Below, in pieces: positions 7,411-27,287 of a stretch of DNA of 64,000 nt. Each line of letters opens with the position of its first letter. The stretch's first letter is position 1. The notes beneath the pieces are model-generated. The model did not search any database, had not been told where the DNA came from, and saw only the letters and a program-made list of their open reading frames with translations. The stretch covers positions 15,132 through 79,131 of IMG/VR virus record IMGVR_UViG_3300028800_000074. One strand, given 5' to 3'. The stretch comes from a virus. The translations under genes and the position numbers were made by a program.

Positions 7411-10400
7411 ATGGCAGCGCGTAAGCGGCCGACCTCATCCCCCCGGGTGAGGCCCGGCATCCATATCTCGGCGGCCCTCCAGTCCCGTATCCTGCGGGCC
7501 AAGGACGGTCCGAGCTACGACCCGTTCAAGCCCTACGTTCACGATCAGGCGCTGCACCCGCCCGGCGTAACGATGGCGATGGACGACGCCTACAACTCCT
7601 TCAGCCCGACGGCTGGGTGGTCGGTCCGCAGCCTCGGCAGCGCTATCGCCGAGGGGCAGGTCTTCCTCGGCTACCCGACCTTGGCCGCGTTGCTTCAACG
7701 CGTCGAGTACATGAACGCGGTCATGTCCTACGCCGACGACATGACGCGGAAGTGGATCGAGTTCAAGGCGAGCGCCGGGACCGACAAGCAAGAGCGCATC
7801 GACGCGATTACAGACAAGTGGGACGCGCTTCAGGTGCAGGCGCGGATGAAGGATCATATCGCGCAGGCTCTCGGCTTCGGACGGGCGCACGTCTATCTCG
7901 ACACGGGCGACACCGATAATCCGGACGAGCTGAAGAAGGACATTGGCGACGGCGCTCGGTCTGCCGCCACGGCGTTCAAACTCCCGGGCAAGAAGGTGCT
8001 CGGGCTCAGGACGATTGAGCCGGTCTGGGTCAGCCCGCACGACTACGAGACCTCGAACCCGCTCAAGCCGAACTGGTACAAGCCCAACGCTTGGCACGTC
8101 ATGGCGCGCGAGGTTCATGCGAGCCGTCTTCTGACGACCATCCCGTTCCCGGTCTCCGACTTGCTCAAGCCCGCCTACTCGTTCGGCGGCATCCCGCTCA
8201 TCCAGATGGGCAAGCCATACGTCGACAACTGGCTGAACGTCAGACAGTCGACGACCGACATCGCCGAGGCCTACTCGATCTTCGTGCTTGCGACGAAGTT
8301 GCAGGACACGATGGCTGGCGGCAACGGAGACCAAGAAGTCCTCAACCGCGTGGCGCTCTTCAATCGATACCGCTCTAACAAGGGCACGATGGTCATCGAC
8401 AAGGAGACCGAGGACTTCAAGAACATCTCGGCCAATGTGTCCGGCATCGAGGCGATCCAAGCCGCGTCGCAGGAGCATATGAGCGCCGCATGGCGCATCC
8501 CGCTGGTCAAGCTCACCGGCATCTCGCCGTCCGGGCTCAATGCATCGAGCGAGGGCGAGATCAGGGTCTATTACGACCTGATCCGGAGCATGCAGGAAGG
8601 CCTCATCCGCCCCCTGCTCCAGATCGTCCTCGACTTCACGAGCATCGAGCTGTTCGGCGACGTCGATCCGGATATCACGTTCGACTTCGTCAAGCTCTTC
8701 GAGGTCACCGAGGTTGAGGCGGCCCAGATCAGGTCGGCCGATGCGCAGACCGGCACGGCGCTCATCCAGTCCGGCGTGATCTCGACCGAGGAAGAGCGGG
8801 CCCGCGTCTCCAACGACCCGGACAGCCCGTACATCGACCTCAAGGACACGCCGATCCCAGTCATGCCGGGCCCAGCCCCGGGTGAAGAGGGCTACGTCGG
8901 CGATCCGGATAACTGGCAGACCGCCCTCGAAGGGATCAACAAGCTCGGCGGCCTCCTGCCAGCGCCGGAGCCCGAGCAGCGCGCCTCACCCGGCGCATGG
9001 GAAGGGGTGCTCAAGGGCGTTCTCGCCAACGGTGGGCTTGAGAACCCGGACAACGACGGCATCGTGGCCTCCCCCGAGGCATGGAAGGCCGTGGGGGCGG
9101 GTTTGTCCGCTTCCGGGGGTCTCAGCACCCCAGACGGCTCCGAGGCCGTCCAGCAGCCTCTTGAGCCCGCCATAAGGCAGGTGTTCGGCAAGGACGCGCT
9201 CGAAGACGAGCCGCGCAAGGGTGCCGGGCAGGCTGGCGGTGGCGAATGGACGGCTCAGAGCGGCGGCGGCGCTCAGAAGTCCGCGCCCGGGAAAAATGGC
9301 ATTATTGCCGGTAATAATCCGGCCAAGCGTCCCCACGTCGCGCACTATGATCCGAAGGCGACGCAGGTCGACGCACAGGGCGTGGTTCACACCACGTCGG
9401 TCGTCGACGCCGCCCGGGCGCTCTATGACGGCAAGAAGGTCGACCTCAATCAGCCGAGAGAGGTCGCAACACTCGTCGACCATCTGGGCCAAGTCGCGAA
9501 GCATATGATCGCGATGGGCGATGCTGCGCCGAACTTCAACCTGTGCAACGTCAGCGTCGACAACACGAACATCTTCTGTGCGGTGAGCGAGGGCATCCCT
9601 CGCATCGACATGCCGCAGCTCCCGCCGAACCTGCACCCGTTCTTGTCGTTCCTCGGCGAGAAGGGTCTCGGCTTCCAGCCCGCGATGGAAAAGGCTGGCT
9701 ACCTCAGGGCGACGCAGAACGAGCTGATCGGCGCTAAGGTCGCGGCTATCGCCAAGGCGTTGCAGAACATCGATCCGCGCAAGCTCGACCCGCTCGTGGT
9801 CAGCAAGGACAACTATATCGTCGACGGTCACCATCGCTGGTCGGCGGAAGTGGCGATCTCGGCTGAGCAAGGCAACTTCGACCGGCCGCTCGAAATCTAT
9901 CGCGTCAACAGCGACATCTTGCCGCTGCTCAAGCTCGCCAACGACTTCACGGGCGGCAAGGGACATGTCGCCGGATCGCTCAAGCCGGGCGAGGCTGCGC
10001 TGAACCTGAAGACCGAGAACCATTTCCTTGATGGGGAGACCCACGCGCACGACGGCCGCCCTTTTGGCCTTGACGAGGCTCGACCGAATCAGGCCATGGA
10101 TGACTTCAGCCCGTCAGAACCGCGCAAGGGCGTGGGACAGGCTGGTGCAGGGGAGTGGACGGCGGAGGGTGGGGCTGCGGCTCCTTTTGGCAAAGGCAAG
10201 CAATCCGAGCCTTCCGCCGCTTCTCTAAGCGACAAGATCGTCTCAACCCGGAACGTGACAGCCAAGTCCACCAAGGGCGAGGCCGAGGGCAAGTACCTCC
10301 GCATCGACACCGATGCGATGAAGGCTGACCCTGAGCTGTTCAAGCACAACGTCGGCCTCTTCAAGCGCGGCGACCTCTACCCCGGTATGAAGCCCGACGA

Positions 10401-11496
10401 ACTGAAGGGCTCCGAGCAAGAGGTCGCCAAGGCCGTCATCGAGCGCATGCGCGACAACCTCGACTTCCTCGTCGGGATGGTGCCGAAGGACAAGATCAAG
10501 GCGTGGGCGCACTGGTATGAGGGGGCGCACAAATTCGCAGAGGACTTCGGCAAGAAGTATGGCGTCGACACGGCGAGCGCGGCAGGCGTGATCGCGGCCC
10601 TCTCGCCGCAGAGGCCGTGGGACGAGAACGTCTACTTCGCGGATCGCGTGATGGACATCATGAAGAACCATCCCCACGACAAGTGGGACGACGCGATGAA
10701 GTCGACCGGCGAGAGGATTTGGACGAGCGCCAAGAACGCGCCGATCCTGAAGGCCATCGAAGGCAAGCGCCTCGACGAACTTGACGACCCAGTCGCTCAG
10801 GCGGCGTGGATCAGGACGTGGAACGAGGCGCACGAAGACCGCAAGTTCGAGATCGCGAAGCCGGACGGCACGTTCGGCGGCAAGATGAAGACGGCGGCCG
10901 GAGGCTATGACACCGCGTCATGGGGATCGCTTGCGCAGACCGTGAACGCGATCCACGCTTTCCAGAGCGGCGGCGACCCGAAGAAGCTCTCCGCAATCTT
11001 GGGTGAGAGACACAAGGTTCGCAGCTTCTACAACAACATCATCGCCCCTGATGATCCTAACGGCGACGTGACGGTCGATACGCATGCTGTTGGAGCGGCG
11101 TGGTTGCAGCCGACCTCGGGGACTTCCGCTTCGGTCTGGCACAACCTAGCTAACAATCCGGGCGCAGAGGGCAAGGACCCGTTCCGGCCGAAGAACTGGG
11201 TAGCAGCCAAGGGCTCGGCGAAGCTCGGCGTGAGAGGCACGTATCCGCTCTATGCCGACGCCTATCGAGAGGCGGCGAAGGATTTGGGGCTCAAGCCCCG
11301 CGAGGTTCAGTCGGTCGCGTGGGAGATGAAGCAGCGCCTGTTCAGCGACAAGCTGACCGGCGAGAGGGTTCAGAAGGCCGTCAACGAGGTCTGGGAAGAC
11401 TACCGTGACGGCAAGCTCTCGCTGAAGGATGCGCGAGAGAAGGTAGTCTCGGTCGCGACGGCTATGCGCCCCGACCACAAGATCGACTTCAACTGA
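7411..11496 (+). CDS. Portal protein (DUF1073 type) with two fused C-terminal cargo domains (ParB-like; HhH-glycosylase-like)
   Basis: DMTRKWI, VHASRL, RIPLVKLTGISPSGLNASSEGE...YYD portal motifs in aa 1-490; IVDGHHRW; WY...AGVIAALSPQ...KVRSFYNN...VTVDTH. Confidence 0.9.
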   Translation: MAARKRPTSSPRVRPGIHISAALQSRILRAKDGPSYDPFKPYVHDQALHPPGVTMAMDDAYNSFSPTAGWSVRSLGSAIAEGQVFLGYPTLAALLQRVEYMNAVMSYADDMTRKWIEFKASAGTDKQERIDAITDKWDALQVQARMKDHIAQALGFGRAHVYLDTGDTDNPDELKKDIGDGARSAATAFKLPGKKVLGLRTIEPVWVSPHDYETSNPLKPNWYKPNAWHVMAREVHASRLLTTIPFPVSDLLKPAYSFGGIPLIQMGKPYVDNWLNVRQSTTDIAEAYSIFVLATKLQDTMAGGNGDQEVLNRVALFNRYRSNKGTMVIDKETEDFKNISANVSGIEAIQAASQEHMSAAWRIPLVKLTGISPSGLNASSEGEIRVYYDLIRSMQEGLIRPLLQIVLDFTSIELFGDVDPDITFDFVKLFEVTEVEAAQIRSADAQTGTALIQSGVISTEEERARVSNDPDSPYIDLKDTPIPVMPGPAPGEEGYVGDPDNWQTALEGINKLGGLLPAPEPEQRASPGAWEGVLKGVLANGGLENPDNDGIVASPEAWKAVGAGLSASGGLSTPDGSEAVQQPLEPAIRQVFGKDALEDEPRKGAGQAGGGEWTAQSGGGAQKSAPGKNGIIAGNNPAKRPHVAHYDPKATQVDAQGVVHTTSVVDAARALYDGKKVDLNQPREVATLVDHLGQVAKHMIAMGDAAPNFNLCNVSVDNTNIFCAVSEGIPRIDMPQLPPNLHPFLSFLGEKGLGFQPAMEKAGYLRATQNELIGAKVAAIAKALQNIDPRKLDPLVVSKDNYIVDGHHRWSAEVAISAEQGNFDRPLEIYRVNSDILPLLKLANDFTGGKGHVAGSLKPGEAALNLKTENHFLDGETHAHDGRPFGLDEARPNQAMDDFSPSEPRKGVGQAGAGEWTAEGGAAAPFGKGKQSEPSAASLSDKIVSTRNVTAKSTKGEAEGKYLRIDTDAMKADPELFKHNVGLFKRGDLYPGMKPDELKGSEQEVAKAVIERMRDNLDFLVGMVPKDKIKAWAHWYEGAHKFAEDFGKKYGVDTASAAGVIAALSPQRPWDENVYFADRVMDIMKNHPHDKWDDAMKSTGERIWTSAKNAPILKAIEGKRLDELDDPVAQAAWIRTWNEAHEDRKFEIAKPDGTFGGKMKTAAGGYDTASWGSLAQTVNAIHAFQSGGDPKKLSAILGERHKVRSFYNNIIAPDDPNGDVTVDTHAVGAAWLQPTSGTSASVWHNLANNPGAEGKDPFRPKNWVAAKGSAKLGVRGTYPLYADAYREAAKDLGLKPREVQSVAWEMKQRLFSDKLTGERVQKAVNEVWEDYRDGKLSLKDAREKVVSVATAMRPDHKIDFN
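8902..9126 (+). repeat. Three 28-aa (84-bp period) repeats PxxWxxxxxGxxxxGGL in the portal linker
   Basis: Trp codons at 8914, 8998 and 9082, exactly 84 nt apart. Confidence 0.8.
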
Positions 11497-11518
11497 ACCT
11501 CGGGAGTTTTCGTGCGAC

Positions 11519-11965
11519 ATGACCACAGAGGATGCGAAGGCGGGTCTTAATCTGGTGATGGCCTACGCCGGTAGGTGGGCGCTGGGCGTCATTGCCTCGG
11601 CGCTTGTCTCAATAGGGCTTTACGCCGTCCACCAGAACAACGACATCACGGGCCTCCTGTCGTCGCACACGCAAAACTTCGTGAGCATGCAGCGCGAGAT
11701 CGACGAGATTAAGGGCGACATCGCCAACCACAACAAGCAGATCGACGATACGCAGAGGCAGATCAAGTCGGACCTGAGCGAGGCGCAGAAAGAGTCGCAG
11801 ACGCAACTGGAGCGTCGGCAGGACGAGATCATGAGCGCGGTGCATGACGTAACGCGCGCCGTAATCGCCGCGCACTCCGACCTGATGTCTCTTCGGGCTG
11901 GTCTTTTGAACGCGAAGCCGGGTATTGTCATCCCGTTCGAAGATTCGAGCCGGGCCGAGAAATGA
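11519..11965 (+). CDS. Membrane-anchored coiled-coil protein
   Basis: One N-terminal TM (WALGVIASALVSIGLYAV) followed by heptad-rich helix. Confidence 0.75.
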   Translation: MTTEDAKAGLNLVMAYAGRWALGVIASALVSIGLYAVHQNNDITGLLSSHTQNFVSMQREIDEIKGDIANHNKQIDDTQRQIKSDLSEAQKESQTQLERRQDEIMSAVHDVTRAVIAAHSDLMSLRAGLLNAKPGIVIPFEDSSRAEK

Positions 11966-12309
11966 GATCGCAACTGATCATCGTGTTCACGGTCGCCTCT
12001 CTGGGCCAATCGGCCTCAGCGCACGCTGGCGACTGGACCGCGCAGGTCGTCGAGCGAACGCAAGGCGGGCCAGCGGCGGTCTGTAACGGTGAGCAGAGGA
12101 TCGTCGTCACGAAGAAGCGTGACGGCACCTTCGTCATCGACGGGCCGACCTGCCTTGTTCCAAGAGCGCCTGCAAATAGCTGGGCTCCTCCGCCTCCGAG
12201 GCCGCCGAGCAAGACGGTCCCTCGAAGGGTCTACCACGAGCGCTATGAGCGGCCTCACCACAAGGGTCGCGCAGGGCTGTTCGACTTCCTGTTCGGTAAG
12301 CACCAATGA
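11962..12309 (+). CDS. Exported small protein (signal peptide, 2 Cys, Pro-rich tail)
   Basis: MRSQLIIVFTVASLGQSASAHA|G. Confidence 0.7.
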   Translation: MRSQLIIVFTVASLGQSASAHAGDWTAQVVERTQGGPAAVCNGEQRIVVTKKRDGTFVIDGPTCLVPRAPANSWAPPPPRPPSKTVPRRVYHERYERPHHKGRAGLFDFLFGKHQ

Positions 12310-13976
12310 ACACGCCCGGCTCCATCGCCGTCCTCAAGTTCATGACGGAGAACGACATCCCGCTCACCCGGGAGAACTTCGTCAACACGAACTGGGGCGG
12401 CAACCCGCCTCGCCCGTGGGACGCCGAGGCCGAAGAAGAGATACCACTGGAGCTGGCCGAGTTCGGCGAGCCGGAAGAGAACCGCGAGCTTCTGGAAGAC
12501 CGTGGCGACCTCGCTGGCGACGACTGGGCCGTGATGGCATCCGGCAAGATCGTCGAAGTCCCCGCTGGCACCAAGGCTGGCGACACAGCCCCGGACATCT
12601 GGGCCAAGGACGCCTTCGACCCGCAGGAGCCGCGCAAGGACGACGGCGAGTGGACGTCGGGAGGCGGGGGCGGCGGAGCGAAGGCTGAGAAGGAGCCGGT
12701 CGTCGACGTGCCCGCATATGAGTGGGCGAAGCGTCAGATCGACAAGCACACGAAGAACAGCAAGCTGCGCGCCAAGCAGCACGAGTGGATGGCGCGGCAC
12801 AAGCAGAACGTCGACGCCTTCTTCAAGAAGAGCGACATCAAGGTCGCGCTCGACAAGGTCGCCAAGGATGCGACATCGACCACGTCGTTCACCGTCGGCG
12901 CGGCGCTCAATAAGGGCGCGGACGTCGTCTCTGATGCGCTTCAGGACGCCTTGATCGCGGTGGCGGTCGGAGCTGGCGTCGCAGCCTTCGGCGTCGGAGG
13001 TTGGCAGGTCGCAGGATCGGCGGCGCTCGCTTACGCGGTCGAAGAGCTTGGCGACTGGCTCGGGCTCACGCCGGAGAACGCGGTCAAGCTCATCAAGGCC
13101 GGAGTGCAGGAGATCGGGAAGGCGCTGAAGAAGCGCCCCCAGAAGGACGAGAACGACGACGGGATGTTCAGCCTTCTGTCGGCTCTCCCGTGGGATCACC
13201 CGGTCGACCCGAAGACGAACCCGTTCATCGAAGGCGAAGAGTTCGTGTCTCCGAACGTCAAGACTGGTCTCGATCTTCAGGACGCGATCAAGGAGACGAC
13301 GTCGCCGCGCCACAAGACGATGATCAAGGCGGCGCGCGACATCAACAAGCTCATCGGCTTCGAGAGCGAAGAACACTCAGCGATTGGCGCTTGGCTCGAC
13401 GGCGCAGAGAACAGCGTGATGTCTGTCACGCACGGCGCGACCATGGCTCAGCTCAGGACGGCGGCGGCGATGGAGGGGGCGCTTGCAAACCAGCGCTCGG
13501 TGATGATCGTCAACGAGAACGTCGGCGGCAAGGGGCTGCTCTATCACTTCGACGTCAAGGGCGACGTTCAGTCGATCCACGACGGCTTGCTGGCGAGCGG
13601 CGTCGAGTTCCACACCATCGTTCCTTCCGCCGACGGCAAGTTCACGGTATATGTCGCCTCGGCTGATTCGTCACAACGAGAGTTCAAGGCGGTTCAGAAG
13701 GCGGCGGAGCGCTTCAATGCCAAAGTCGAGTACCACAGGGTCGACGCCGAACTCGTCGGATCGGACAAAGAAGACGGCACCGACGCCGAGCAGCGAGAAG
13801 ACGCCCAGTCCCGTTACGGATCAATCATTGAAGGCGGCGGGGTTCAAGGAGCCAAAGCCATCTGGGGCCGGGTTTATTCTCGGTACAAGGCCGCCTTCGA
13901 AGACAGAGCCGTAAAGAAGCCTCGTGAAGAGAGGCCGCCGTGGCGGACGCAACAGGCTGAGGGGGCGAGAGCGTGA
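12306..13976 (+). CDS. Putative internal head/cargo protein carrying the EPR-GEW tag
   Basis: WAKD|AFDPQEPRKDDGEWTSGGGGG at about aa 100; central hydrophobic hairpin; located between portal and MuF. Confidence 0.75.
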   Translation: MNTPGSIAVLKFMTENDIPLTRENFVNTNWGGNPPRPWDAEAEEEIPLELAEFGEPEENRELLEDRGDLAGDDWAVMASGKIVEVPAGTKAGDTAPDIWAKDAFDPQEPRKDDGEWTSGGGGGGAKAEKEPVVDVPAYEWAKRQIDKHTKNSKLRAKQHEWMARHKQNVDAFFKKSDIKVALDKVAKDATSTTSFTVGAALNKGADVVSDALQDALIAVAVGAGVAAFGVGGWQVAGSAALAYAVEELGDWLGLTPENAVKLIKAGVQEIGKALKKRPQKDENDDGMFSLLSALPWDHPVDPKTNPFIEGEEFVSPNVKTGLDLQDAIKETTSPRHKTMIKAARDINKLIGFESEEHSAIGAWLDGAENSVMSVTHGATMAQLRTAAAMEGALANQRSVMIVNENVGGKGLLYHFDVKGDVQSIHDGLLASGVEFHTIVPSADGKFTVYVASADSSQREFKAVQKAAERFNAKVEYHRVDAELVGSDKEDGTDAEQREDAQSRYGSIIEGGGVQGAKAIWGRVYSRYKAAFEDRAVKKPREERPPWRTQQAEGARA

Positions 13977-14182
13977 CGCTCGAAGAAGAGCTTTTCAAAA
14001 GAGCGCAGCTTGAGGCTGAGGCGGATCGCATCCTCAGCATCGGCATCGCGCATAATCGAAAGGTGCAGCGAAACGCCAAGCGCCTTAAGCACTGGACTGG
14101 GGGCCGCCTCACCACGGCCGAGATCAATCAGATGACGGCTGAGATGAGGGCGAGGGCTGGTGACGGCAAGGTTCTCGGGTAA
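13973..14182 (+). CDS. Hypothetical protein
   Basis: GTGA overlap. Confidence 0.55.
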   Translation: MTLEEELFKRAQLEAEADRILSIGIAHNRKVQRNAKRLKHWTGGRLTTAEINQMTAEMRARAGDGKVLG

Positions 14183-15083
14183 GTGGTGCGGGCAGCCTTA
14201 CGGCAAGCCCAGCGTGCTGCTCACCCTTCCAAACCTCATGGGTCTCGACGCCAAGGCGTCAGGGAAGCCCGCTGGCGGCCGTCGGCCGTCCGTCGCGGTA
14301 GGCAGGCCCCTGCATCCGAACCTCGGTCTGGCGGCCTCCTATGGGGCGCGGCTGACCTCTCTGATCGACGAGATGCACCGGAGCGTTATCTATTGGCTCA
14401 AGGCCGAGTATCGAGCTAACCCACCAGCGACCATGGCGTTCGACGATCTCGCATCGAAGACACTGGCCGAGACGATGAAGGGTTTGGCGAAGCGGTGGCT
14501 AGGACGCTTCGATGAAATGGCGGAGAGGCTGGCCCGTTATTTCGCCCAGTCCGTATCCAAGCGGACCGACGACGCGCTCAGGAAGATTTTGAGCGACGGC
14601 GGCATGGCGCTCAGGGACTGGAAGACGACCGCCGCCCAGAAGGATGCGCTCGCGGCCATCGTCCACGAGAACGTGTCGCTGATCAAATCGATCCCGCGCG
14701 AGTATCTCGGCAAGGTCGAGCGCGACGTGATGCGGTCGGTCGCGGCCGGTCGAGACCTGAAGCAGCTCGAAGACGATCTTCAGGCACACTTCGGGGTGAC
14801 CCGAGACAGGGCTAGGCTGATCGCGGTCGACCAGAACAACAAGGCGACGGCGATGCTGCGCCGCGTCCGCGCCGTCGAGGCGGGCACGTTCACATGGGAG
14901 TGGATGCACTCCAGCGCAGGCAAGACGCCGCGCCCGACGCATCTCGCGGCCGGACGTCGTGGCCAGCGGTTCGACATCCGAGAGGGATGGTTCGATCCGC
15001 ATGAGGGCCGCAAGGTTCAGCCGGGCGAATTGATCCGGTGCCGATGTACTTGCCGACCGGTTTTCCCCGGCCTACCGTCCTGA
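14160..15083 (+). CDS. Head morphogenesis protein (MuF / SPP1 gp7 family)
   Basis: ENVSLIKSI, RARLIAVDQNNKA, PRPTH, PGELIRCRC. Confidence 0.92.
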   Translation: MTARFSGKWCGQPYGKPSVLLTLPNLMGLDAKASGKPAGGRRPSVAVGRPLHPNLGLAASYGARLTSLIDEMHRSVIYWLKAEYRANPPATMAFDDLASKTLAETMKGLAKRWLGRFDEMAERLARYFAQSVSKRTDDALRKILSDGGMALRDWKTTAAQKDALAAIVHENVSLIKSIPREYLGKVERDVMRSVAAGRDLKQLEDDLQAHFGVTRDRARLIAVDQNNKATAMLRRVRAVEAGTFTWEWMHSSAGKTPRPTHLAAGRRGQRFDIREGWFDPHEGRKVQPGELIRCRCTCRPVFPGLPS

Positions 15084-15128
15084 AAGGTGATTCGGCGTTG
15101 CCGACACCACGTTGGAAGGAGAGAGCCA

Positions 15129-15515
15129 ATGCCGCGTGGAAAAGCGAAGATGCCGATGAGGCTGAGACATCCGCCGACCCAGAACTATCACCGGGATGAG
15201 CCAGCGCCGCCGACGCACCGGCCTCCACCCAGCGCCGGGGCCGAAGGCAAGAGCACTGGACTTCACTCGGTCCAGTACGACTTCGATATTCGCGTAAGCG
15301 AACTGGTTCGCTTCAACGAGCGTCTTGAGCGCCTTCGCAACGAGTTGCTGGGGGTGGCGGACATGAGCGGCGAAGGACAGGAGCAGAAGCCCGAGCCGAT
15401 GGGCATCCTCCCAAGGTCGCAAGCGTCGTGTGCTGCAATCGGGGGTCAGATCGTTCACGCGAACGACGTCCTTGATGACATTATGACCGCGTGCGGCGTC
15501 GTGGAGAATTATTGA
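15129..15515 (+). CDS. Hypothetical protein
   Basis: GGAAGGAGAGAG RBS before ATG 15129. Confidence 0.65.
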   Translation: MPRGKAKMPMRLRHPPTQNYHRDEPAPPTHRPPPSAGAEGKSTGLHSVQYDFDIRVSELVRFNERLERLRNELLGVADMSGEGQEQKPEPMGILPRSQASCAAIGGQIVHANDVLDDIMTACGVVENY

Positions 15516-15526
15516 AGGGTTTCGAC

Positions 15527-15643
15527 ATGAAACTGGCGCTCGCGGTCTTCTTCATCTTCACGCTCGCAGGCTGCGCGGCCGGTCCGGGCTCGACGCAGAA
15601 CTGCTTTCTGTCTCCGGGGCAGCAGGGCTGCTTCACGCCGTGA
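15527..15643 (+). CDS. Small lipoprotein, 38 aa (not in ORF track)
   Basis: MKLALAVFFIFTLAG|CAAGPGSTQNCFLSPGQQGCFTP; canonical lipobox LAGC; stop overlaps GTG 15640. Confidence 0.75.
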   Translation: MKLALAVFFIFTLAGCAAGPGSTQNCFLSPGQQGCFTP

Positions 15644-15843
15644 CGACGCCAGACTTCGATGAGCGCCAGTTCCTGCTCAACATCTACTCCGGGCCGCGCG
15701 TCAGTCTGGAGTGGGTCAATGACTTCGAGTCGGCGCGGGCCCGCGCCGACGCTCTTCTTCGTGCTGGCGGGGTTGATCGCGTTGTCGTTCATGGGCCGGA
15801 CGTCGCTGGCCCGTTCGAGGCCCGGACCCCCTACCATGGCTGA
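15640..15843 (+). CDS. Hypothetical protein
   Basis: Overlap-coupled ORF. Confidence 0.55.
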   Translation: MTTPDFDERQFLLNIYSGPRVSLEWVNDFESARARADALLRAGGVDRVVVHGPDVAGPFEARTPYHG

Positions 15844-16105
15844 GACTGAGCAGCCGCTGATCGGCACCTTCTGCGAGACGTACAGGATCAAGAACGCGAC
15901 GAGCGAGATCGGCGGCTTCTGGCGTATCGGCATGTTCTTCTGCGATGCGCAGGACGCCGCGACGGCCGAGAAGGTGGCGAAGTACAAGGCGATGCAGAAG
16001 CACGGCCTCATGCCCTATTTTCTGTCGACGGCGAGGGTGATCCCGTTCGGGTTGCCTGACCCCGGCCAAGCGCTGCGCAAGAAGGTCGAGAAGAAAACCA
16101 AATGA
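15836..16105 (+). CDS. Hypothetical protein
   Basis: Probable start MAETEQP; overlap-coupled. Confidence 0.6.
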   Translation: MAETEQPLIGTFCETYRIKNATSEIGGFWRIGMFFCDAQDAATAEKVAKYKAMQKHGLMPYFLSTARVIPFGLPDPGQALRKKVEKKTK

Positions 16106-16299
16106 GCCGGAAGCTGGCGGTCCTGTTCGACCTCTTGGAAACCGTGGTCATCGACAAACAGGTTGAGGCGAAGATCGTCGAGATCACGGCCCTCCCAGCT
16201 CAGAACGGTGAGGTCCGCATCCTCTACCACGTCGAATGGTTCAACAACGGCGCGCTCCTTTCAGCGAACATCGACGAGGACAGGCTGACCGCGAAATGA
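16102..16299 (+). CDS. Hypothetical protein (small SH3-like)
   Basis: ATGA overlaps; YxVxW motif. Confidence 0.65.
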   Translation: MSRKLAVLFDLLETVVIDKQVEAKIVEITALPAQNGEVRILYHVEWFNNGALLSANIDEDRLTAK

Positions 16300-16565
16300 G
16301 CTTCGGCTGGCGCAAGGCTTTACGCGAAATGTTCGGTCTCAAGTCGCCGGATGATGCCCGGTCCGAGCAGTCCCAGCCGAAGCTCTTCGCCGATGGGACA
16401 TGGGCTCCAAGGGTCTTCACGAGGGTGTGGAGGTCGTCGAACGGGAACACGACGCTTATTCTCAACTTCGACGAAGACCCGAACCGAGATGGGTGGAACT
16501 GGGGCCGACCGTGGACGAGGCTGACCGAGATCGCGCCCGGCATGTTTCGAGGCGATGATCGATGA
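16296..16565 (+). CDS. Hypothetical protein
   Basis: ATGA overlap. Confidence 0.6.
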   Translation: MSFGWRKALREMFGLKSPDDARSEQSQPKLFADGTWAPRVFTRVWRSSNGNTTLILNFDEDPNRDGWNWGRPWTRLTEIAPGMFRGDDR

Positions 16566-16807
16566 TTCGTCCTGCCTGCTACATCTGCCTGCAAGAGCTT
16601 CCAGAGAGCTTCACCTTCACGAAGGGCGAGCCGCCGCCGCGTGACGCTTGGTACTGGACGAACGTAACGCCAGACGCCTCACCGCCTCCGTTTGGTAGTG
16701 GGCCCGTGATGCGACCGGTGCATGACCGGTGCAAGCCGCTGCCTACGCTAGTCGCCAGTGCGAGAACGGTGGCGGGGGATCGCGGGGCTCAGGGGCTGGC
16801 GGAGTAG
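16562..16807 (+). CDS. Zn-finger-like hypothetical protein
   Basis: CYIC...HDRC. Confidence 0.6.
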   Translation: MIRPACYICLQELPESFTFTKGEPPPRDAWYWTNVTPDASPPPFGSGPVMRPVHDRCKPLPTLVASARTVAGDRGAQGLAE

Positions 16808-16940
16808 CACCAATGGCCTTGCGCGCGATTGCCGTGATTTCCATGATCGCCGCTATGTCCGCCTGAACCAAGCGCGGACTGAGAAGGAGTTGCAATTCGA
16901 TTGATGCGATGCGCTGCTCTACCGCTTGGTTGTTTGTCAT
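16743..16940 (-). CDS. Small antisense-strand hypothetical protein
   Basis: GAAAGAGAGAGcccgATG start; fills a gap in the + strand gene chain. Confidence 0.45.
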   Translation of the reverse strand: MTNNQAVEQRIASIELQLLLSPRLVQADIAAIMEITAIARKAIGATPPAPEPRDPPPPFSHWRLA

Positions 16941-17043
16941 CGGGCTCTCTCTTTCGCTCAATGGCCAAAGATAATCGGACTACGTCCGAGCCGGATAGTT
17001 GTCACCCCTCGGAAACTACTCAAACGTCGCCACGGAGCTTGTG

Positions 17044-17394
17044 ATGTCTCTCAGCCCGCTCGTCGCGCTCTTGGTGTTGCTGGCCGCGTCTTCAGCTCAC
17101 GCCGAGAGCTACTGCGGGAAGCCTGAGAACGATGCGGTTCTCAAGCTCATCCCAGACGCCAAGATCGAGACGCTCACGAAGAGCCAGTTCTACTACGCGC
17201 TCGGCATCTGGAACGGACAACCTCCGATTGGGCGTGGACCGGACGACGTGGACGGCGCTGAGATCGTGACAAGCCCGGACGGCAAGAGAGCAGCGGTCTT
17301 GTTCACGCTGGGGCCGCTGTTGTGTGGAGGGATTGCTCCGGCTCCGCCTCAGGTCATCGAGATGATCCGAAAGATTGATGGAGGGGAGCTGTGA
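17044..17394 (+). CDS. Exported small protein (signal peptide, 2 Cys)
   Basis: MSLSPLVALLVLLAASSAHA|ESYC. Confidence 0.75.
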   Translation: MSLSPLVALLVLLAASSAHAESYCGKPENDAVLKLIPDAKIETLTKSQFYYALGIWNGQPPIGRGPDDVDGAEIVTSPDGKRAAVLFTLGPLLCGGIAPAPPQVIEMIRKIDGGEL

Positions 17395-17768
17395 TCCGCT
17401 GGGCCGTCGCGTTCTTGCTTCTTGCGTCGCCTGCCGTTGCGCATACGAACTGCGACGGGTCGAGCGCGAGCAAGGTCCAAGGGTGCTGCGGTCCGGAAGA
17501 CTCGCTCCATGTGAGTCCCGGCGACGTGAGCCGCGACGGCGACGTCTGGTACGTCAAGATCGATGGCGCGATGCACGCGCTGATCAACGGAGCTGGCAAC
17601 CCCATCCAGCTCATGCCGCAGGACGATCAGGGCCACGGCTCCTGCTACACGGTCTGGTACCGGCGCGAGGTCACGAAGGGCAGCAGCTCTTTCGATCCCA
17701 ACAATACGCACGGCGGAAGCGGTGATGTGTACCACTTCTACTGCTTCCAAGGACCATACACCTTTTAA
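17391..17768 (+). CDS. Exported Cys-rich small protein
   Basis: MIRWAVAFLLLASPAVA|H; GCCG...CY...YCF. Confidence 0.75.
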   Translation: MIRWAVAFLLLASPAVAHTNCDGSSASKVQGCCGPEDSLHVSPGDVSRDGDVWYVKIDGAMHALINGAGNPIQLMPQDDQGHGSCYTVWYRREVTKGSSSFDPNNTHGGSGDVYHFYCFQGPYTF

Positions 17769-17806
17769 GACCTTCTGAAGGAGAGAGCAGAAGTGGACAC
17801 ACGACA

Positions 17807-18271
17807 GTGAAGAACGACGAAGAATGGGTTTCGCTGAACCCGCCTAGGGGTGGACGAGCTCCGTCCCTGCCTCCTGACTGGATCAGGGTGTCGATGAACA
17901 TCGCTGATGCAGGGAACGAGGCCTTCATCCGCTTCGGTGGAAGGTGGGCCGCGTGGGCGCTCAAGGCGAAGAGCATCGCCGTCATGCTCGGCGGCACGAA
18001 GCTCAACAAGCTCAAGCTCACGCCAGATGAGAACGGTTTCCGCGTAAGCAAGGGCAACCCGAAGAGCGTCACGGCGGTTGTCCGGCTACGCCACGTAGGC
18101 CAGTGGCCACGCGAAGAGCGTCCGCTCACCTTCGCCGAGGTCAAGGTGCTCGACGACGGTTCGCTCATCATCTTCCTCCCCGAGACGTTCGGGCAGAAGA
18201 AGATCGTCGCCGCGATGGCGGGTCGCCCGGCAATCCCGGCCGGAGCCATGGGCGGTGGAAACAGGCGGTGA
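17807..18271 (+). CDS. Hypothetical protein
   Basis: Phage-like codon use; upstream purine-rich RBS. Confidence 0.65.
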   Translation: MKNDEEWVSLNPPRGGRAPSLPPDWIRVSMNIADAGNEAFIRFGGRWAAWALKAKSIAVMLGGTKLNKLKLTPDENGFRVSKGNPKSVTAVVRLRHVGQWPREERPLTFAEVKVLDDGSLIIFLPETFGQKKIVAAMAGRPAIPAGAMGGGNRR

Positions 18272-18474
18272 GCCTAGCTGACCGCTATATCGGCGAGGAC
18301 GGAGGTCCGCCTACCGGCAAGCCGAAGAAGCGGTTGCCGAAGTCCGATATTGACAACCTGATCAACAAGGTCTTTCGAGGCTTCAACATCGGGGCGTCCA
18401 TCTCGGATCGATTCGAGGCGCACGACGCGATGGCGAAGCTAGCCAAGGTCTTGAGAAACGAACATGTCGCCTGA
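18268..18474 (+). CDS. Hypothetical protein
   Basis: GTGA overlap start. Confidence 0.6.
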   Translation: MSLADRYIGEDGGPPTGKPKKRLPKSDIDNLINKVFRGFNIGASISDRFEAHDAMAKLAKVLRNEHVA

Positions 18475-18751
18475 GCACACACCGGCTCGACCCTCGAAGT
18501 GCTGCCCCGCTCTATCCCGTCGCCTCATGGGCGCGGTCGGGTTTCATGCCTACCCCATGATGAACGCCTACGCCGGATGGTTCGAGCCGATCTCTGGGCG
18601 GATCAACGTCGAGTGGCTCTCGCCGGAAGAGGTTAAGGTCCGGCACGATAAGCTCGTAGCAGAGGGTCAGAAGCGGACCTTCCAGATGGTCAACGGCATC
18701 GTCGTGGAGGCCAACGTCGACGATCTCAATGCAATCTCGGAGCGCGTGTGA
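18464..18751 (+). CDS. Hypothetical protein
   Basis: Overlap-coupled. Confidence 0.55.
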   Translation: MSPEHTPARPSKCCPALSRRLMGAVGFHAYPMMNAYAGWFEPISGRINVEWLSPEEVKVRHDKLVAEGQKRTFQMVNGIVVEANVDDLNAISERV

Positions 18752-18969
18752 TGGCTGACCCCGTGGTGACCCTCGTGCAGGGCGACAAGGTCTCCGACAA
18801 AGAGCGCGCCGAGTGGCACAAGCAGAACATCGCCAAGGCGGCAGAGACGCTCTTCGCCGCCATGGACCTCGCGGTCAGCGAGGACTTCGTCATCAACTTC
18901 CAGCCCACCATAAACATAGCGATCAAAAAGCACATGATCGCGGTGCTGGGCGTCGGGAGGATGTGGTGA
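18748..18969 (+). CDS. Hypothetical protein
   Basis: Overlap-coupled. Confidence 0.6.
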   Translation: MMADPVVTLVQGDKVSDKERAEWHKQNIAKAAETLFAAMDLAVSEDFVINFQPTINIAIKKHMIAVLGVGRMW

Positions 18970-19265
18970 CGGCGATTGGCGGATGGGACATCGTCCACGA
19001 GTGCGATGACGGCTATCACGTCGTCTGGCTCCTGAGCAACGACAAGGGCGAAGAGCTGGCGCACGCCGAGGGCTTCCGGCGCGGGGAGAACGGCGGGTAC
19101 GTCTGGTACCCCTACGCGATGGACCCGAGCGACCCCGAGCATCTGATCCGTCTCGGTCCGTCGGCGCACAGCGACATCGAACTCGTGAAGAAACAGTGCG
19201 AGGCAGTCATCGAGGGGTCCAAGAGCCCTTACGCGGACAGCGTCGCCTACGTGATCGGAGGTTGA
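18966..19265 (+). CDS. Hypothetical protein
   Basis: GTGA overlap, GGGAGG RBS. Confidence 0.6.
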   Translation: MTAIGGWDIVHECDDGYHVVWLLSNDKGEELAHAEGFRRGENGGYVWYPYAMDPSDPEHLIRLGPSAHSDIELVKKQCEAVIEGSKSPYADSVAYVIGG

Positions 19266-19268
19266 GGC

Positions 19269-19976
19269 GTGGGCAGCAACGGCAAACTCGGCATGGACGC
19301 TTGGAAGAAGGCGTTCGCGAAGGACTGCTGGATGAAGGGCGCGAAGGACGACAACGAGTCCATGGCGGCCGAGCAGGACGACAGCGGCGGCATGACCGGC
19401 GACGTCCCCGGCTTCGAGACCTCGCATGTGCCAACCTTCAGCCCCGAGGACTTCGAGCGCTTGGGCGCACGGAAGGCCAAGGGCAACGACGACGCCTATC
19501 GCGGATGGACGCCCGGTGGCGGTGCGCCACAGCCGATCACGACCAGATCAACTCCGGCAGCGCCTAAGCGCCCGGAGTACCGTGGGTGGACCCCGGGTGG
19601 TGGCGCACCGATGTCGAAGGACGGCATCGTGAGCGGCATCAAGAGCGCGGCGAAGTCGGCGTTCGCGGCAGCGAGGAAGCCTTACCCGTCGTCAACTCCG
19701 GGCGACCCGTTTCACCTTCCGAGCGCGACGCCGAAGAACGGCTTCTCGATGCGGAACGGTCGCGGCGCTCATGACTCGCCGACCGACAAGACGCCCGATC
19801 AACCGTCCGGCTTCGACAAGGGCGGCATGGTGCGCGGCATGGATTACCTGAAGAAGGGCCAGAGGCGTCTCGGCAAGGCTGGCGCGATGGACGTCATCCT
19901 GAAGACGAAGCGCCCCAGTAGTGGCGTCAGCACTTCGCTCCGGCACGAAGTAGAGGACTTGCAGGACTCGGTGTGA
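19269..19976 (+). CDS. Low-complexity protein with many [AGS]-x-D sites (putative internal head peptide precursor)
   Basis: GMD, AKD, AKD, GND, SKD, AHD, GFD, GMD, AMD; duplicated YRGWTPGGGAP; GGAGG RBS. Confidence 0.7.
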   Translation: MGSNGKLGMDAWKKAFAKDCWMKGAKDDNESMAAEQDDSGGMTGDVPGFETSHVPTFSPEDFERLGARKAKGNDDAYRGWTPGGGAPQPITTRSTPAAPKRPEYRGWTPGGGAPMSKDGIVSGIKSAAKSAFAAARKPYPSSTPGDPFHLPSATPKNGFSMRNGRGAHDSPTDKTPDQPSGFDKGGMVRGMDYLKKGQRRLGKAGAMDVILKTKRPSSGVSTSLRHEVEDLQDSV

Positions 19977-19998
19977 GTCCTGAAGCGAGGAGAGAGAG

Positions 19999-20238
19999 AT
20001 GCTGAATCACATCGAAGTCAACGACCGCCTTACCCGCCTTGAGCGCTTCGTCGCCGAGATCGGCTCGCACATCTCGTCGGACAGTATTTCGCCAGAGCTG
20101 GAGCAGTTCGTCGCGGCCGATCAGGCGAGGATCGACAAGGAGCGTGAAGAGCAGTCGGCGAATGAGCCCGGCGAGGCCCACGACGGCGGCCCGATGCCGC
20201 CCGAGGGCGACGGCACCGACCCTGACGCGCCTCGTTGA
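19999..20238 (+). CDS. Acidic small protein with SSD/AAD/AHD sites
   Basis: GAGGAGAGAGAG RBS. Confidence 0.7.
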   Translation: MLNHIEVNDRLTRLERFVAEIGSHISSDSISPELEQFVAADQARIDKEREEQSANEPGEAHDGGPMPPEGDGTDPDAPR

Positions 20239-20390
20239 CGATCAGGCACGTCTGCGCCTTCTGTTCGACGAATAACGCGATGCAGATGGGCTCGACCGCG
20301 ACCAAGAACGGGCGGACCGGCGTCGTGAAGTGGTGGAACTTGCTCCACTGCATCAAGTGCCGCCGCTCGTATCGGATCGGTCGAACATGA
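20235..20390 (+). CDS. Small Zn-ribbon protein, 51 aa (not in ORF track)
   Basis: TTG start overlapping upstream stop; CAFC...CIKC; ATGA overlap downstream. Confidence 0.65.
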   Translation: MTIRHVCAFCSTNNAMQMGSTATKNGRTGVVKWWNLLHCIKCRRSYRIGRT

Positions 20391-20551
20391 ACTGGGCGCT
20401 CGCTCACTTGCGCCATAAGATGCGCGTCAAGGGCTATGGCCTCGTTCGAGACCGGCGCAGATGGCGGAACGAGCGCAATCACTGGCGCGTGCGGCGACAG
20501 ATGATGTCGCTCTTCGAGGCGGCGGGATTTTTCGAGGCCGAGAGCCAATGA
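20387..20551 (+). CDS. Small Arg-rich protein
   Basis: ATGA overlaps at both ends. Confidence 0.55.
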   Translation: MNWALAHLRHKMRVKGYGLVRDRRRWRNERNHWRVRRQMMSLFEAAGFFEAESQ

Positions 20552-20790
20552 GCTTCAATGTTCAAGGATGGTCGAAGTGCTTCTCGCATGATTGCTGGAA
20601 GCCGAAGACTGCCGCGAAGGACGATTGGGGCGACTATCATCGGGTCGGTGGGATGAACTTCCCGACCGCGAAGACGGCCGAGCGCATCGATCACGCTGGT
20701 CTCAATAAGGAGACGCGCACTCCCGGGAACATGCGCGAAGACGAAGGTCTCGGCCAGTCCATCAGGGACGACCGGGACATGAGCTGGTAA
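20548..20790 (+). CDS. Small protein sharing the N-terminal motif of the 19269 gene
   Basis: WSKCFSHDCWKPKTAAKDD versus WKKAFAKDCWMKGAKDD. Confidence 0.65.
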   Translation: MSFNVQGWSKCFSHDCWKPKTAAKDDWGDYHRVGGMNFPTAKTAERIDHAGLNKETRTPGNMREDEGLGQSIRDDRDMSW

Positions 20791-20809
20791 CCGCAGCTCT
20801 CCCTTTCAG

Positions 20810-23266
20810 ATGCGTCGACCTGTCGGGTTCGCCCGAGCGCTTGCGCTCGACGACTTCAATGCGGCTGAGCCTCGCGCCAACAATGGCCAGTGGGCAGCGG
20901 CTCCGGGCGGGGGCTTCACGCTCAGGCCAGACGCGGCCAGTGCCGCTACCCGTTACAGAAGGGCAACGGAGCGAGCGCAGTCTGCTCTGCCTGACGACGA
21001 CGAATATCAGCGTCTTCTGGAGCAGGGGCGGAAGCTCGAAGGCCTGAAGGCCGCCGTCCGCGATCCCCTGACCGGGAAGATCATGACCGGGCGTGATCAC
21101 AACGCGGCGTTCTACTCGCACGATAAGGATGCGCAGGCGCGCATCAAGGCGACACTGACGCCCGGACGAGACCCGGTGACGAACGTCGCGACCAATAGGT
21201 GGAACTACGAAGGGCCAAACGTCGGCTTTACTCGTGGTGGATCATTTTTCTCGCGTCAGCAGGTCGAGGACATGCTTAAGGCGCGCGATGATCAGGATTT
21301 ATCCGAAGCGCTTCACGGTGCCTCCTACGAGGATGTGCGCTCGAAGCGCAGTTCAATCGCCAGCACCATCGCCCGCTTCCATAATCGTGAGGGCGGAGAA
21401 CCCATGTTCGGTGGAGATCGAAGGAAAGTGTTCGCGCACGACGCAATCGATGCAGAGATGGCGTTCGATGAAGCCCAGACCACGCGATCTTATGATCCGT
21501 TCGGTCGGCTCAACCTCGACCTGACGCCGATCTCGAAGGCGACCGTCAATCCATATCAGGGGAAGGAAATCCCCGACTGGCAGAAGCTCAAGCTTGACCC
21601 CGAAAAGGTCTACATGCTGCTTCGCCATCCCGACGAACTGAAGCGCGCAGCCGCGAGCTTCAACAATGTGCCGCTGCTCTATCGTCACAAGCCGACGAGC
21701 GCCGAGAACCATCCACGCGATCTCGTTGTGGGGACGACCGGCGAGCGCGCAGTTTATCAGCACCCCTACCTCTACAACTCGATGTCCGTCTGGGACGACA
21801 ACGACGGCATCGAGGGCATCGAGAACAACAAGGCTCGCGCTCTCTCGTGTGGCTACGCCTATGACCCGGACATGAGGCCGGGCGTCTACGAGGGGCAGCG
21901 TTACGACGGCGTGATGCGCAACATCAGGGGCAATCACGTCATCCTCACAAAGGAAGGCCGCGCCGGGCCGGACATCATCGTTGGCGACTCAATGGAGAAC
22001 CTCAACATGGCAACTGCACCGAAGCTTTCTCCGGTGGCATTGGTCGCTCGAAGGGCGGTCAGGCAGCACCTTACGCCGCTCATGGCGGCCGACGCGGCGA
22101 TTGACATCACGCCCGCCTTCGTCGGCCTCAAGCAGCTCGACGAGCGATCCCAGCAGATCGTTCACGCGCGGGTCGGCCAGCTCGTGCGCGGCAAGCTCAA
22201 CGCGGCGCTGGCGATGGACGATGTGAGCGCCGGGCTCCGTGCGCTGCTCGAAGCGCTTGGCGGAGGCGGCGAGCCCGACATGGGCGGCGGCGTCGACGAC
22301 GTCTCCCCTCCCGGGACCGAGGCCGAGGGCATGCCCGAGACCGACCTCGCGACCGGCGCAGAGCCGGACACGATGCAGCTCGAAACCGACGCCGCTCCCC
22401 CGGAGGATACCTCTGGCGGCAACGACCCGCCTCCGATGCAGGGCGCTGGCGGCGATCCGGCTGCGATGGAGCAGGCGGGTCCGGCACCGCAGGGCGGCGA
22501 AGGCGCGGCAGGACCGATTGAGAAGGTCCGCAGCTACCTCATGACCGTCCTGAACCCCGCCGAGATGCAGCATCTCGAACTCCTCATCTCCGAAGTCGAC
22601 AGCGGCGACGGAGGGGAGCCGGACCCGACCATGCAGGCGGGAGGCTCAGAGAAGCCCGGTGGCGGCCATCCGCCGATGGCCGGTGCTGGTGGACCTCCCG
22701 GCCCCGACAAGGGCGCTGGCGGGCCTCCTATGGCCGCTGGCGGCCCTCCCAAGCCTCCCGGCGCTGGCGGACCTCCGCCGAAGCCCGGCGCGGGTGGGCC
22801 TCCCGATCCCAAGAAGCAAACCGGGGATAACCCCCCTCGAACCGCAGGAACGCCGCAGGTCGGCGGAAAGGACAGAAACATGGCAGGTGATCAGGCCTTC
22901 GTCAGCCGGGCCGACCTTCAGGCTGCGCTCGCGGCGAACGACAAGCTCCATCGTGAGCGTGCGGAAGCCCGGGCTTTCATCCGACCGTTTGTCGGGGAAC
23001 TCACCGGGCTCGCGATGGACGCGGCTCCGAACGACGTCATCAAGGCCGCGCTCAAGATCAAGGGCATGTCCGACGCCGACCTGAAGCCAATTCAGGACAC
23101 GGCCGCGCTCAAGCTCCTGCTCGGCGCTCAGTCGAAGGCCGAAGCGTCGCGTGAGAGAGCGCCCCGCATGGCGCTCGATTCGAAGGCGACGTCGAAGGAC
23201 GAGCCCTTCAGCATCGAGGCCGTCACCGGTCTCAAGAACTTCGGAAGGATCGGACGCGCGGCCTAA
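20810..23266 (+). CDS. Prohead protease (DUF2213 type)/scaffold with N-terminal tagged cargo domain
   Basis: TPISKATVNPYxGxEIP, LSCGYxY, YDGVMRNIRGNHV, GRAG; Gly/Pro-rich scaffold; N-terminal LALD|DFNAAEPRANNGQW. Confidence 0.88.
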   Translation: MRRPVGFARALALDDFNAAEPRANNGQWAAAPGGGFTLRPDAASAATRYRRATERAQSALPDDDEYQRLLEQGRKLEGLKAAVRDPLTGKIMTGRDHNAAFYSHDKDAQARIKATLTPGRDPVTNVATNRWNYEGPNVGFTRGGSFFSRQQVEDMLKARDDQDLSEALHGASYEDVRSKRSSIASTIARFHNREGGEPMFGGDRRKVFAHDAIDAEMAFDEAQTTRSYDPFGRLNLDLTPISKATVNPYQGKEIPDWQKLKLDPEKVYMLLRHPDELKRAAASFNNVPLLYRHKPTSAENHPRDLVVGTTGERAVYQHPYLYNSMSVWDDNDGIEGIENNKARALSCGYAYDPDMRPGVYEGQRYDGVMRNIRGNHVILTKEGRAGPDIIVGDSMENLNMATAPKLSPVALVARRAVRQHLTPLMAADAAIDITPAFVGLKQLDERSQQIVHARVGQLVRGKLNAALAMDDVSAGLRALLEALGGGGEPDMGGGVDDVSPPGTEAEGMPETDLATGAEPDTMQLETDAAPPEDTSGGNDPPPMQGAGGDPAAMEQAGPAPQGGEGAAGPIEKVRSYLMTVLNPAEMQHLELLISEVDSGDGGEPDPTMQAGGSEKPGGGHPPMAGAGGPPGPDKGAGGPPMAAGGPPKPPGAGGPPPKPGAGGPPDPKKQTGDNPPRTAGTPQVGGKDRNMAGDQAFVSRADLQAALAANDKLHRERAEARAFIRPFVGELTGLAMDAAPNDVIKAALKIKGMSDADLKPIQDTAALKLLLGAQSKAEASRERAPRMALDSKATSKDEPFSIEAVTGLKNFGRIGRAA

Positions 23267-23315
23267 GCGCGTCCATTTCGTCCGCCCCTCAAACTCAGCA
23301 TAGAGGAGAGACCCG

Positions 23316-24284: not shown

Positions 24285-24340
24285 GGCGGCTGACACAACC
24301 ATAAAGCCCAAGCGGCTAACCTCTGTAGGAGAACCCTCAC

Positions 24341-25444: not shown

Positions 25445-25513
25445 CCCCGGCCATATCGCACCGGGTCGGCGAGAGAGAGCGACCCAAACTTCCAAAACTG
25501 AAAGCAGGACATC

Positions 25514-26565: not shown

Positions 26566-26583
26566 CCGAAAGGAACATCGATC

Positions 26584-27216: not shown

Positions 27217-27287
27217 GGGACGTCGCGGGCTGGGTCTTCTTCGCCTTCATCGTCATCGGCCTCGCCCTTATGTGGGTCCATGGTTAA
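27204..27287 (+). CDS. 27-aa single-TM micropeptide
   Basis: GAGG...GTG; MEQLRDVAGWVFFAFIVIGLALMWVHG; overlaps both neighbours. Confidence 0.45.
   Translation: MEQLRDVAGWVFFAFIVIGLALMWVHG

Follow-up and report, generated by a model that had tools for sequence, protein, structure and literature searches.

An expanded DUF7178 module with a predicted OGG2/AGOG-like HhH-GPD fold as C-terminal cargo of a phage portal protein

The portal gene of a myovirus-type phage continues far beyond the end of its portal domain, and the question raised by this locus is what the last part of the encoded protein is and does. The gene (P0001) lies in a 64,000-nucleotide stretch, here called the window, which corresponds to bases 15132–79131 of the 79,131-bp IMG/VR virus record IMGVR_UViG_3300028800_000074 (completeness estimate 91%); all positions given below are those of the window. 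The portal domain is followed by two cargo modules, and the second of these (cargo 2) is the subject of this study. A first-pass annotation had described cargo 2, from nucleotide 10093 onwards, as a helical DNA-glycosylase-like domain of the helix–hairpin–helix (HhH) superfamily. We put the probability at about 0.55 that cargo 2 is a phage-specific, expanded DUF7178 module that is delivered with the virion and acts as an OGG2/AGOG-like glycosylase/apurinic–apyrimidinic (AP) lyase. The motifs on which the annotation was based (WYEGAH, AAGVIAALSPQRPWDEN, HKVRSFYNNI, VTVDTHA, YADAYREAA and LGLKPREVQSVAW) are all present in the open reading frame (ORF). Its starting point at 10093 (residue 895) takes in a linker and a short tag sequence, however, and the folded domain covers residues ~952–1351 (Table 1).

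The Pfam DUF7178 profile (PF23802) recognizes cargo 2 with a score of 88.8 bits (cut-off 27); insertions split the match into three stretches. The typical Pfam member of this family is a compact protein of ~205 residues, for example gp22 of Microbacterium phage Cece, which carries the depositors' annotation 'glycosylase'. Comparison of the window module with the 207-residue Cece gp22 in hhalign gave a probability of 98.9% (E = 3e-17); the compact DUF7178 proteins and the window module are therefore homologous. Relative to Cece gp22, the window module consists of the compact core, an N-terminal helical extension, an insertion of ~85 residues and a loop of ~25 residues. The β-hairpin of the insertion is formed by DSSP strands at model residues 204–215.

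A model of cargo 2 was built with AlphaFold2 (AF2) from a 40-sequence alignment and reached a predicted local distance difference test score (pLDDT) of 94.4 and a predicted template-modelling score (pTM) of 0.92. The model was compared with 48,161 PDB representative chains using VIA-align. The top 22 matches were exclusively enzymes of the HhH-GPD superfamily, led by Tm1821 Ogg2 (Z = 9.0, root-mean-square deviation 3.9, 186 residues aligned) and followed by Qng1/DUF2419 in second and third place (Z = 8.6 and 8.4). Pa-AGOG was matched at Z = 7.4 and endonuclease III at Z = 6.9 and 6.1, with MagIII, MutY, Mag1, hOGG1, AlkA and ROS1 as further matches, and the highest-scoring unrelated fold stood at Z = 4.0. 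A second, independent AF2 model, of a compact 206-residue DUF7178 protein (P0391; pLDDT 88.1), gave the same picture: the top 22 were again all HhH-GPD proteins, Tm1821 scored Z = 11.4 and the first unrelated fold Z = 4.5. The compact model aligned with Tm1821 end to end (167 of 206 residues; model residues 8–191 onto chain residues 0–204). Both models show the two-lobed all-α fold shared by endonuclease III, OGG and AlkA. The helical, glycosylase-like character proposed in the first-pass annotation is thus upheld by two independent models, and the assignment of cargo 2 as a structural member of the HhH-GPD superfamily, predicted to lie nearest to the OGG2/AGOG 8-oxoguanine glycosylase/lyases, is supported.

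The models also place a candidate active site. In the cargo 2 model, DSSP assigns a helix (residues 247–254), a three-residue hairpin and a second helix (258–268), of which the second residue is the candidate Schiff-base lysine K1202 (model K259); the lysine therefore stands where HhH helix 2 begins. A 12-residue Pro/Gly loop follows (model residues 269–280, APDDPNGDVTVD), and the aspartate D1223 (model D280) then N-caps helix 281–288. The order of HhH, Pro/Gly loop and Asp matches the HhH-GPD hallmark as defined in a review of the OGG enzymes (PMC3397491), judged on DSSP and conservation and not by residue-level superposition. Conservation was assessed over 150 representatives at ≤50% identity, in which K1202 and P1213 are kept in 150, D1223, H1225 and W1304 in 149, Q1300 in 148 and G1218 in 123. 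The Lys, Asp, His, Gln and Trp are likewise invariant in the compact DUF7178 family. Positional parallels, again without superposition, can be drawn between the Asp-x-His of the module and hOGG1 D268/H270 and MjaOGG2 H148, and between its Gln-x3-Trp and hOGG1 Q315/F319 and MjaOGG2 D194/W198 (PMC3397491). The VDTH motif had been called typical of endonuclease III-type enzymes with a catalytic Asp, and this holds: Escherichia coli endonuclease III (Nth) reads AVDTHIF. Written out, Nth has GRK(120)TANVVLNTAFGWPTIAVD(138)TH and the module has HK(1202)VRSFYNNIIAPDDPNGDVTVD(1223)TH; the Lys precedes the Asp by 18 residues in Nth (K120) and by 21 in the module (K1202 to D1223), and in the module both are essentially invariant.

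Several results weigh against this assignment. Sequence and profile methods gave no significant link to HhH-GPD. A Pfam scan of the module up to E = 10 found DUF7178 alone and not the HhH-GPD family PF00730, which was also absent from the whole 79-kb virus record; the module is accordingly not filed under PF00730, and the relationship is one at the fold level only. Searches of PDB sequences with the module and with Cece gp22 in phmmer returned nothing relevant, and hmmsearch with the module profile (A1) returned no match at E ≤ 10. The module (A1) and A4 profiles gave hhalign probabilities below 1% against E. coli Nth, whether this was supplied as a single sequence or as a 20-sequence alignment, in what is a weak test, since the aligned Nth sequences differ little from one another (86–99% identity, the search having given close relatives only). 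The top local registers in these alignments, which are statistically insignificant, put model K259 on Nth K120, or K109/D128/H130 on K120/D138/H140. At the structural level, AGOG, MjaOGG2 (MjOgg) and SsOgg rank first in Foldseek for both models, with top E-values of about 0.1–0.5 and nothing in the PDB at E ≤ 0.001 for either. The Z-scores of 9–11 fall in the range (below 13) for which the VIA-align program warns that helical proteins may share merely a common arrangement. The residue equivalences in the predicted model come from secondary structure and spacing and not from superposition. Packaging, cleavage and ejection of the cargo are steps that we infer, as are its catalysis and its DNA substrate. 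A list drawn from a single superfamily, the end-to-end coverage and the clear gap to the next fold are our reasons for taking the superfamily relationship as a true one.

Membership of the superfamily does not by itself imply an active DNA glycosylase. HhH-GPD folds also serve as inactive base sensors, and inactivated endonuclease III domains sense modified bases in the END defence nucleases (PMC12191111). Cargo 2 could similarly be a catalytically silent DNA- or base-binding module that masks sites on the entering genome or senses modified bases, and it might then stay on the portal. The hairpin of the module, LGERH in place of the canonical LPGVG, would suit such a role. The END sensor domains have, however, lost their catalytic residues (PMC12191111), whereas the Lys, Asp and His of DUF7178 are kept in 149–150 of 150 diverged relatives and in the compact family, which is the pattern of an active enzyme. 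We regard a silent module as improbable.

The HhH-GPD fold is also found in the nucleotide hydrolase Qng1, and cargo 2 could be an N-glycosidase of the Qng1/DUF2419 kind, with a small molecule or free nucleotide as its substrate instead of DNA; once ejected, it might destroy an immune signal or a metabolite derived from nucleotides. Beyond their rank, the two Qng1/DUF2419 matches have the longest alignments (225–226 residues over model residues 14–378). DUF7178 relatives are fused to NUDIX and ADP-ribosyltransferase (ART) domains, which act on nucleotides or nicotinamide adenine dinucleotide, and counter-nucleotide roles have been proposed for polyvalent proteins (PMC7824862). Against this, DNA glycosylases are the best matches of both models, the HhH and the invariant Lys at the lyase position fit DNA-backbone binding and Schiff-base chemistry, and the module is accompanied by a ParB-like cargo that is directed at DNA. 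The pairing of a ParB-like module with DUF7178 recurs, in variable order, in three non-identical relatives (P0009, P0019 and P0031) and hints at cooperation on DNA. Action on a free nucleotide therefore seems unlikely to us, and a glycosylase/AP-lyase acting on DNA is preferred.

DUF7178 is a large, phage-specific and essentially virus-only family. Of 1.84 billion cluster representatives (50% identity) searched in phmmer with residues 944–1361, 3328 matched at E ≤ 1e-3, among them 1411 at E ≤ 1e-30, numbers that, as sequence matches, far exceed chance. The best 150 of the 3328 matches span nearly the whole unit of ~400 residues, inside proteins that range from 302 to 4452 residues. Neighbours of the module in the ESM Atlas and BFVD are 96–100% viral, and every one is named 'uncharacterized'. 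An origin from conjugative elements was considered and set aside, tblastn of 72,556 plasmids having given only two partial hits. Loci related to the compact homologue were sought in IMG/VR and none was confirmed; the module matches no Pfam LPD family, and DUF7178 is not mentioned by name in the literature searched.

The partner domains of DUF7178 relatives include ART-PolyVal, an ADP-ribosyl exotoxin domain, NUDIX, Zeta toxin, SLT and the portal. Such a mixture marks the 'polyvalent proteins' described by Iyer et al. (2017), and the window gene conforms to it in carrying portal, ParB-like and DUF7178 modules in one ORF between TerL and the MuF-like protein. Fusions of this kind with portal and MuF proteins have been read as packaging effectors for injection with the DNA (Iyer et al., 2017; PMC5512222). 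In Rhodobacteraceae phage LS06-2018-MD07 (OP947163.1; L001), DUF7178 occurs inside a giant coding sequence that is annotated as 'methyltransferase' and crosses the start of the circular record (42499..9155), an extreme polyvalent protein.

The joining of cargo 2 to the portal in one polypeptide had been claimed in the first-pass annotation and is seen directly: the frame stays open for 4086 nucleotides, as a single uninterrupted reading frame of 1361 residues. The portal domain is complete (PF06381, E = 7e-73, profile positions 3–354 of 357; phrog_146, E = 2.9e-94) and is the sole match in an NCBIfam scan of the fusion protein. Megablast of the gene against 50,697 phage records gave no match. 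The gene comes from a single metagenomic virus contig and its protein cluster is known from one contig, so we considered an assembly or sequencing artefact, in which portal and cargo would be two genes whose dividing stop codon or frameshift had been lost from the record. A portal-region search returned 533 relatives at E ≤ 1e-20 (748–2382 residues), all bearing C-terminal cargo, and the portal+DUF7178 architecture was found on independent contigs, in P0109 (three contigs), P0372 and, with a lambda-type portal, P0013. This recurrence shows that the fusion is not an assembly artefact; we consider that explanation barely credible.

The cargo of the 533 relatives is variable and comprises ARTs, NUDIX, topoisomerase IB, DdrB-type ParB, Zeta toxin, GNAT, histidine phosphatase and inteins. 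A check on whether related portals exchange the domain for others, suggested in the first-pass annotation, was thus positive, and cargo swapping on the PF06381 portal chassis is the rule. The accompanying remark that a fusion to a portal is very unusual was overstated, in view of these relatives and of the portal–effector fusions described in 2017 (PMC5512222). What is uncommon, as far as the sequences sampled go, is specifically DUF7178 as portal cargo: it was found in 3 of the 120 portal relatives listed (120 of 533), and a portal domain is present in 4 of 150 DUF7178 relatives, which include two PF06381 portals and one lambda-family portal. Two of the portal relatives (within P0273–P0390) are named 'anti-CBASS Acb1 family protein' at NCBI, an apparent oddity of naming.

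The C-terminus of a portal protein points to the capsid interior. Because the module hangs from this inward-facing end, ~12 copies per virion would be built in without separate targeting. The same attachment would suit a module that serves only the structure or assembly of the head, for instance by extending the portal crown, acting as a scaffold or helping to spool the DNA, and that does nothing once ejected; in 94 of 150 relatives it forms the C-terminal domain. The majority of DUF7178 relatives are not portals, however, and related portals exchange the position of the module for ART, NUDIX, topoisomerase IB or Zeta toxin. Roseobacter phage CRP-738 encodes the module apart from the portal, in an 835-residue gene two genes further downstream, and in Microbacterium phage Cece a standalone compact form of ~200 residues lies among non-structural genes; these two placements show that the domain works independently of the portal. 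A purely structural role is thus very improbable in our estimation.

Short tags accompany the cargo. A Pro/Gly/Ala-rich linker follows the portal domain and a second linker separates cargo 1 from cargo 2; each tag of the portal gene lies ahead of a cargo module (Table 1). The tag pattern D-x-[FL]-x3-EPR-x3-8-G-x-W occurs in exactly four copies in a six-frame translation of the 64-kb window, all in frame within head-module genes: two in the portal gene, one in the 556-residue ORF and one in the protease fusion. Of 138 homologues, 24 have a similar tag, (E/H/Q)PR..G.(W/F), at most 140 residues ahead of DUF7178. The tag resembles a signal for capsid targeting or processing, or a mark of cassette boundaries. 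Cargo 1 matches phrog_2859 (E = 1e-20) and the ParB-like phrog_1033 (E = 3e-4); Pfam gave no match on it, including to ddrB-ParB (PF18763), which is present on some related portals.

Taken as a glycosylase/AP-lyase, cargo 2 would operate as follows. The helix–hairpin–helix at residues 1190–1211 would hold the DNA backbone, and a flipped-out base would enter a pocket formed by Q1300 and W1304. K1202, activated by D1223, would attack C1′ and the N-glycosidic bond would be cut; the resulting Schiff base would then permit β-elimination, giving both glycosylase and AP-lyase activity. Packaging and delivery are predicted from the covalent portal link only. The head protease probably frees the cargo near the tag-bearing linkers, and the freed cargo would exit with the genome and act early on host, competitor or incoming phage DNA, a proposed parallel with what has been suggested for other polyvalent virion proteins.

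A wider proposal can be advanced tentatively, and we think it possible but rather doubtful. DUF7178 as a whole may be a large phage-specific class of virion-delivered, active OGG-like glycosylase/lyases that, as the genome enters, remove one particular base of purine type from DNA that belongs to the host or a competitor or that carries defence marks, as the phage-side counterpart of host anti-phage glycosylases. The target might be a modification that the host installs or a base of the 7-deazaguanine type, and the ParB-like partner might process the abasic sites or nicks.

Portal–effector fusions and polyvalent proteins are already known, and DUF7178 has been catalogued as of 'unknown function'. 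What is new is the model-based placing of a large phage-specific family in the OGG2/AGOG-like branch of HhH-GPD, with a putative catalytic dyad retained and with predicted virion delivery. Polyvalent injected proteins are thought to be the first strike on host defences, and most of their domains are uncharacterized. DUF7178 now has a testable predicted chemistry, base excision via the Lys/Asp pair in an OGG2/AGOG-like pocket; no description of base excision by capsid-delivered proteins was found in the literature searched. Should the domain prove active, knowing which base it removes would expose a novel strategy, either for putting host or competitor DNA out of action or for deleting marks that defence systems have installed. 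The locus also makes clear that the portal family serves as a general chassis for exchanging cargo enzymes.

The coordinates of the features are given in Table 1. The portal–cargo gene is placed in the head module, with TerL on one side and the MuF-like head protein on the other. The 713-residue ORF that precedes it has no match in PHROG or Pfam. In the head protease fusion the tag is at residue 20 and the DUF2213 domain at residues 226–394, and the remaining ~420 residues have no Pfam match; an XM1 gp53-like minor capsid protein comes after it. Baseplate and fibre genes are located beyond the tail sheath, and an exonuclease VIII-like gene opens the non-structural module.

Table 1. Features of the window and of the portal–cargo fusion protein.
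Feature	Residues	Nucleotides	Strand	Basis or note
Large terminase TerL		2919–4454		
ORF of 713 residues		5258–7399		Between large terminase and portal
Portal–cargo fusion gene, 1361 residues		7411–11496	+	Single ORF, no stops
Portal domain	90–447	7678–8751	+	Pfam PF06381 Phage_portal_3, phrog_146
Tag 1, EPRKGAGQAGGGEW, in Pro/Gly/Ala-rich linker	600–613	9208–9249	+	Regex scan
Cargo 1, ParB/Srx-like module, contains DGHHRW	695–849	9493–9957	+	phrog_2859, phrog_1033
Tag 2, EPRKGVGQAGAGEW, ahead of cargo 2	903–916	10117–10158	+	Regex scan
Cargo 2, expanded DUF7178 module, predicted HhH-GPD (OGG2/AGOG/EndoIII-like) fold	952–1351	10264–11463	+	Pfam PF23802, AF2, VIA-align
Insertion of ~85 residues, helices and β-hairpin, missing from compact DUF7178	1088–1173	10672–10929	+	Block unaligned in hhalign with Cece gp22
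Helix-hairpin-helix: helix PKKLSAIL, hairpin GER, helix HKVRSFYNNII	1190–1211	10978–11043	+	DSSP
Candidate Schiff-base Lys	K1202	11014–11016	+	Lys kept in 150/150
Pro/Gly loop and Asp-Thr-His	P1213 ... G1218 ... D1223-T-H1225	11047–11085	+	DSSP, conservation
Candidate base-pocket pair, C-terminal helix	Q1300-x3-W1304	11308–11322	+	Conservation
ORF of 556 residues		12306–13976		Head module
Tag copy in 556-residue ORF		12627–12653		
MuF-like head protein		14160–15083		
Protease fusion, 818 residues		20810–23266		DUF2213 protease domain
Tag copy in protease fusion		20867–20893		
XM1 gp53-like minor capsid protein		23316–24284		
Tail sheath		29241–31217		
Exonuclease VIII-like gene		62863–63801	−	phrog_412, E = 4.5e-64

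Among known systems, the OGG2/AGOG enzymes (Tm1821, PDB entry 3n0u; MjaOGG2, 3knt; Pa-AGOG, 1xqo/1xqp) include the best structural match of each model (Z = 9.0 and 11.4). They have in common with the predicted module a two-lobed all-helical fold, the series of HhH, Pro/Gly loop and Asp, a Lys that starts HhH helix 2, a His at position +2 from the Asp and, in the C-terminal helix, a polar residue with a Trp at position +4 from it (D194/W198 in MjaOGG2; PMC3397491). They differ in that the identity is only 10–14%, with no detectable sequence or profile relationship and a different hairpin sequence, and in that the module adds the N-terminal helical extension, the ~85-residue β-hairpin insertion and the ~25-residue loop. 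The OGG2/AGOG enzymes are cellular repair genes, whereas the module is phage-encoded within virion polyproteins. Endonuclease III (Nth, 2abk) is related at the level of the superfamily fold (Z = 6.1–7.5) and shares the K ... VDTH arrangement (K120/D138-T-H in Nth, K1202/D1223-T-H in the module), but the module has no [4Fe–4S] cluster cysteines and its Lys–Asp spacing is 21 rather than 18. The queuosine-5′-phosphate N-glycosidase Qng1/DUF2419 (7ugk, 7u07) has an HhH-type fold and a size near that of the expanded module; it is a cellular salvage enzyme that acts on a free nucleotide, releasing queuine, and no sequence relationship to the module was detected.

With the polyvalent proteins (Iyer et al., 2017; PMC5512222) the window gene shares the linking of unrelated effector domains in one polypeptide, the head-gene locus and the portal fusion, and its relatives share the ART-PolyVal, NUDIX, Zeta, SLT and ParB-like domains; in the text of that study 'glycosylase' has no occurrence and HhH occurs once, in a different context. 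The endonuclease III-type sensor of the END nucleases (PMC12191111) offers a case in which an HhH glycosylase fold has been recruited to phage–host conflict. That sensor belongs to the host side, its catalytic residues are gone and its fusion partner is a PLD nuclease, whereas DUF7178 is phage-side and retains the Lys and the Asp.

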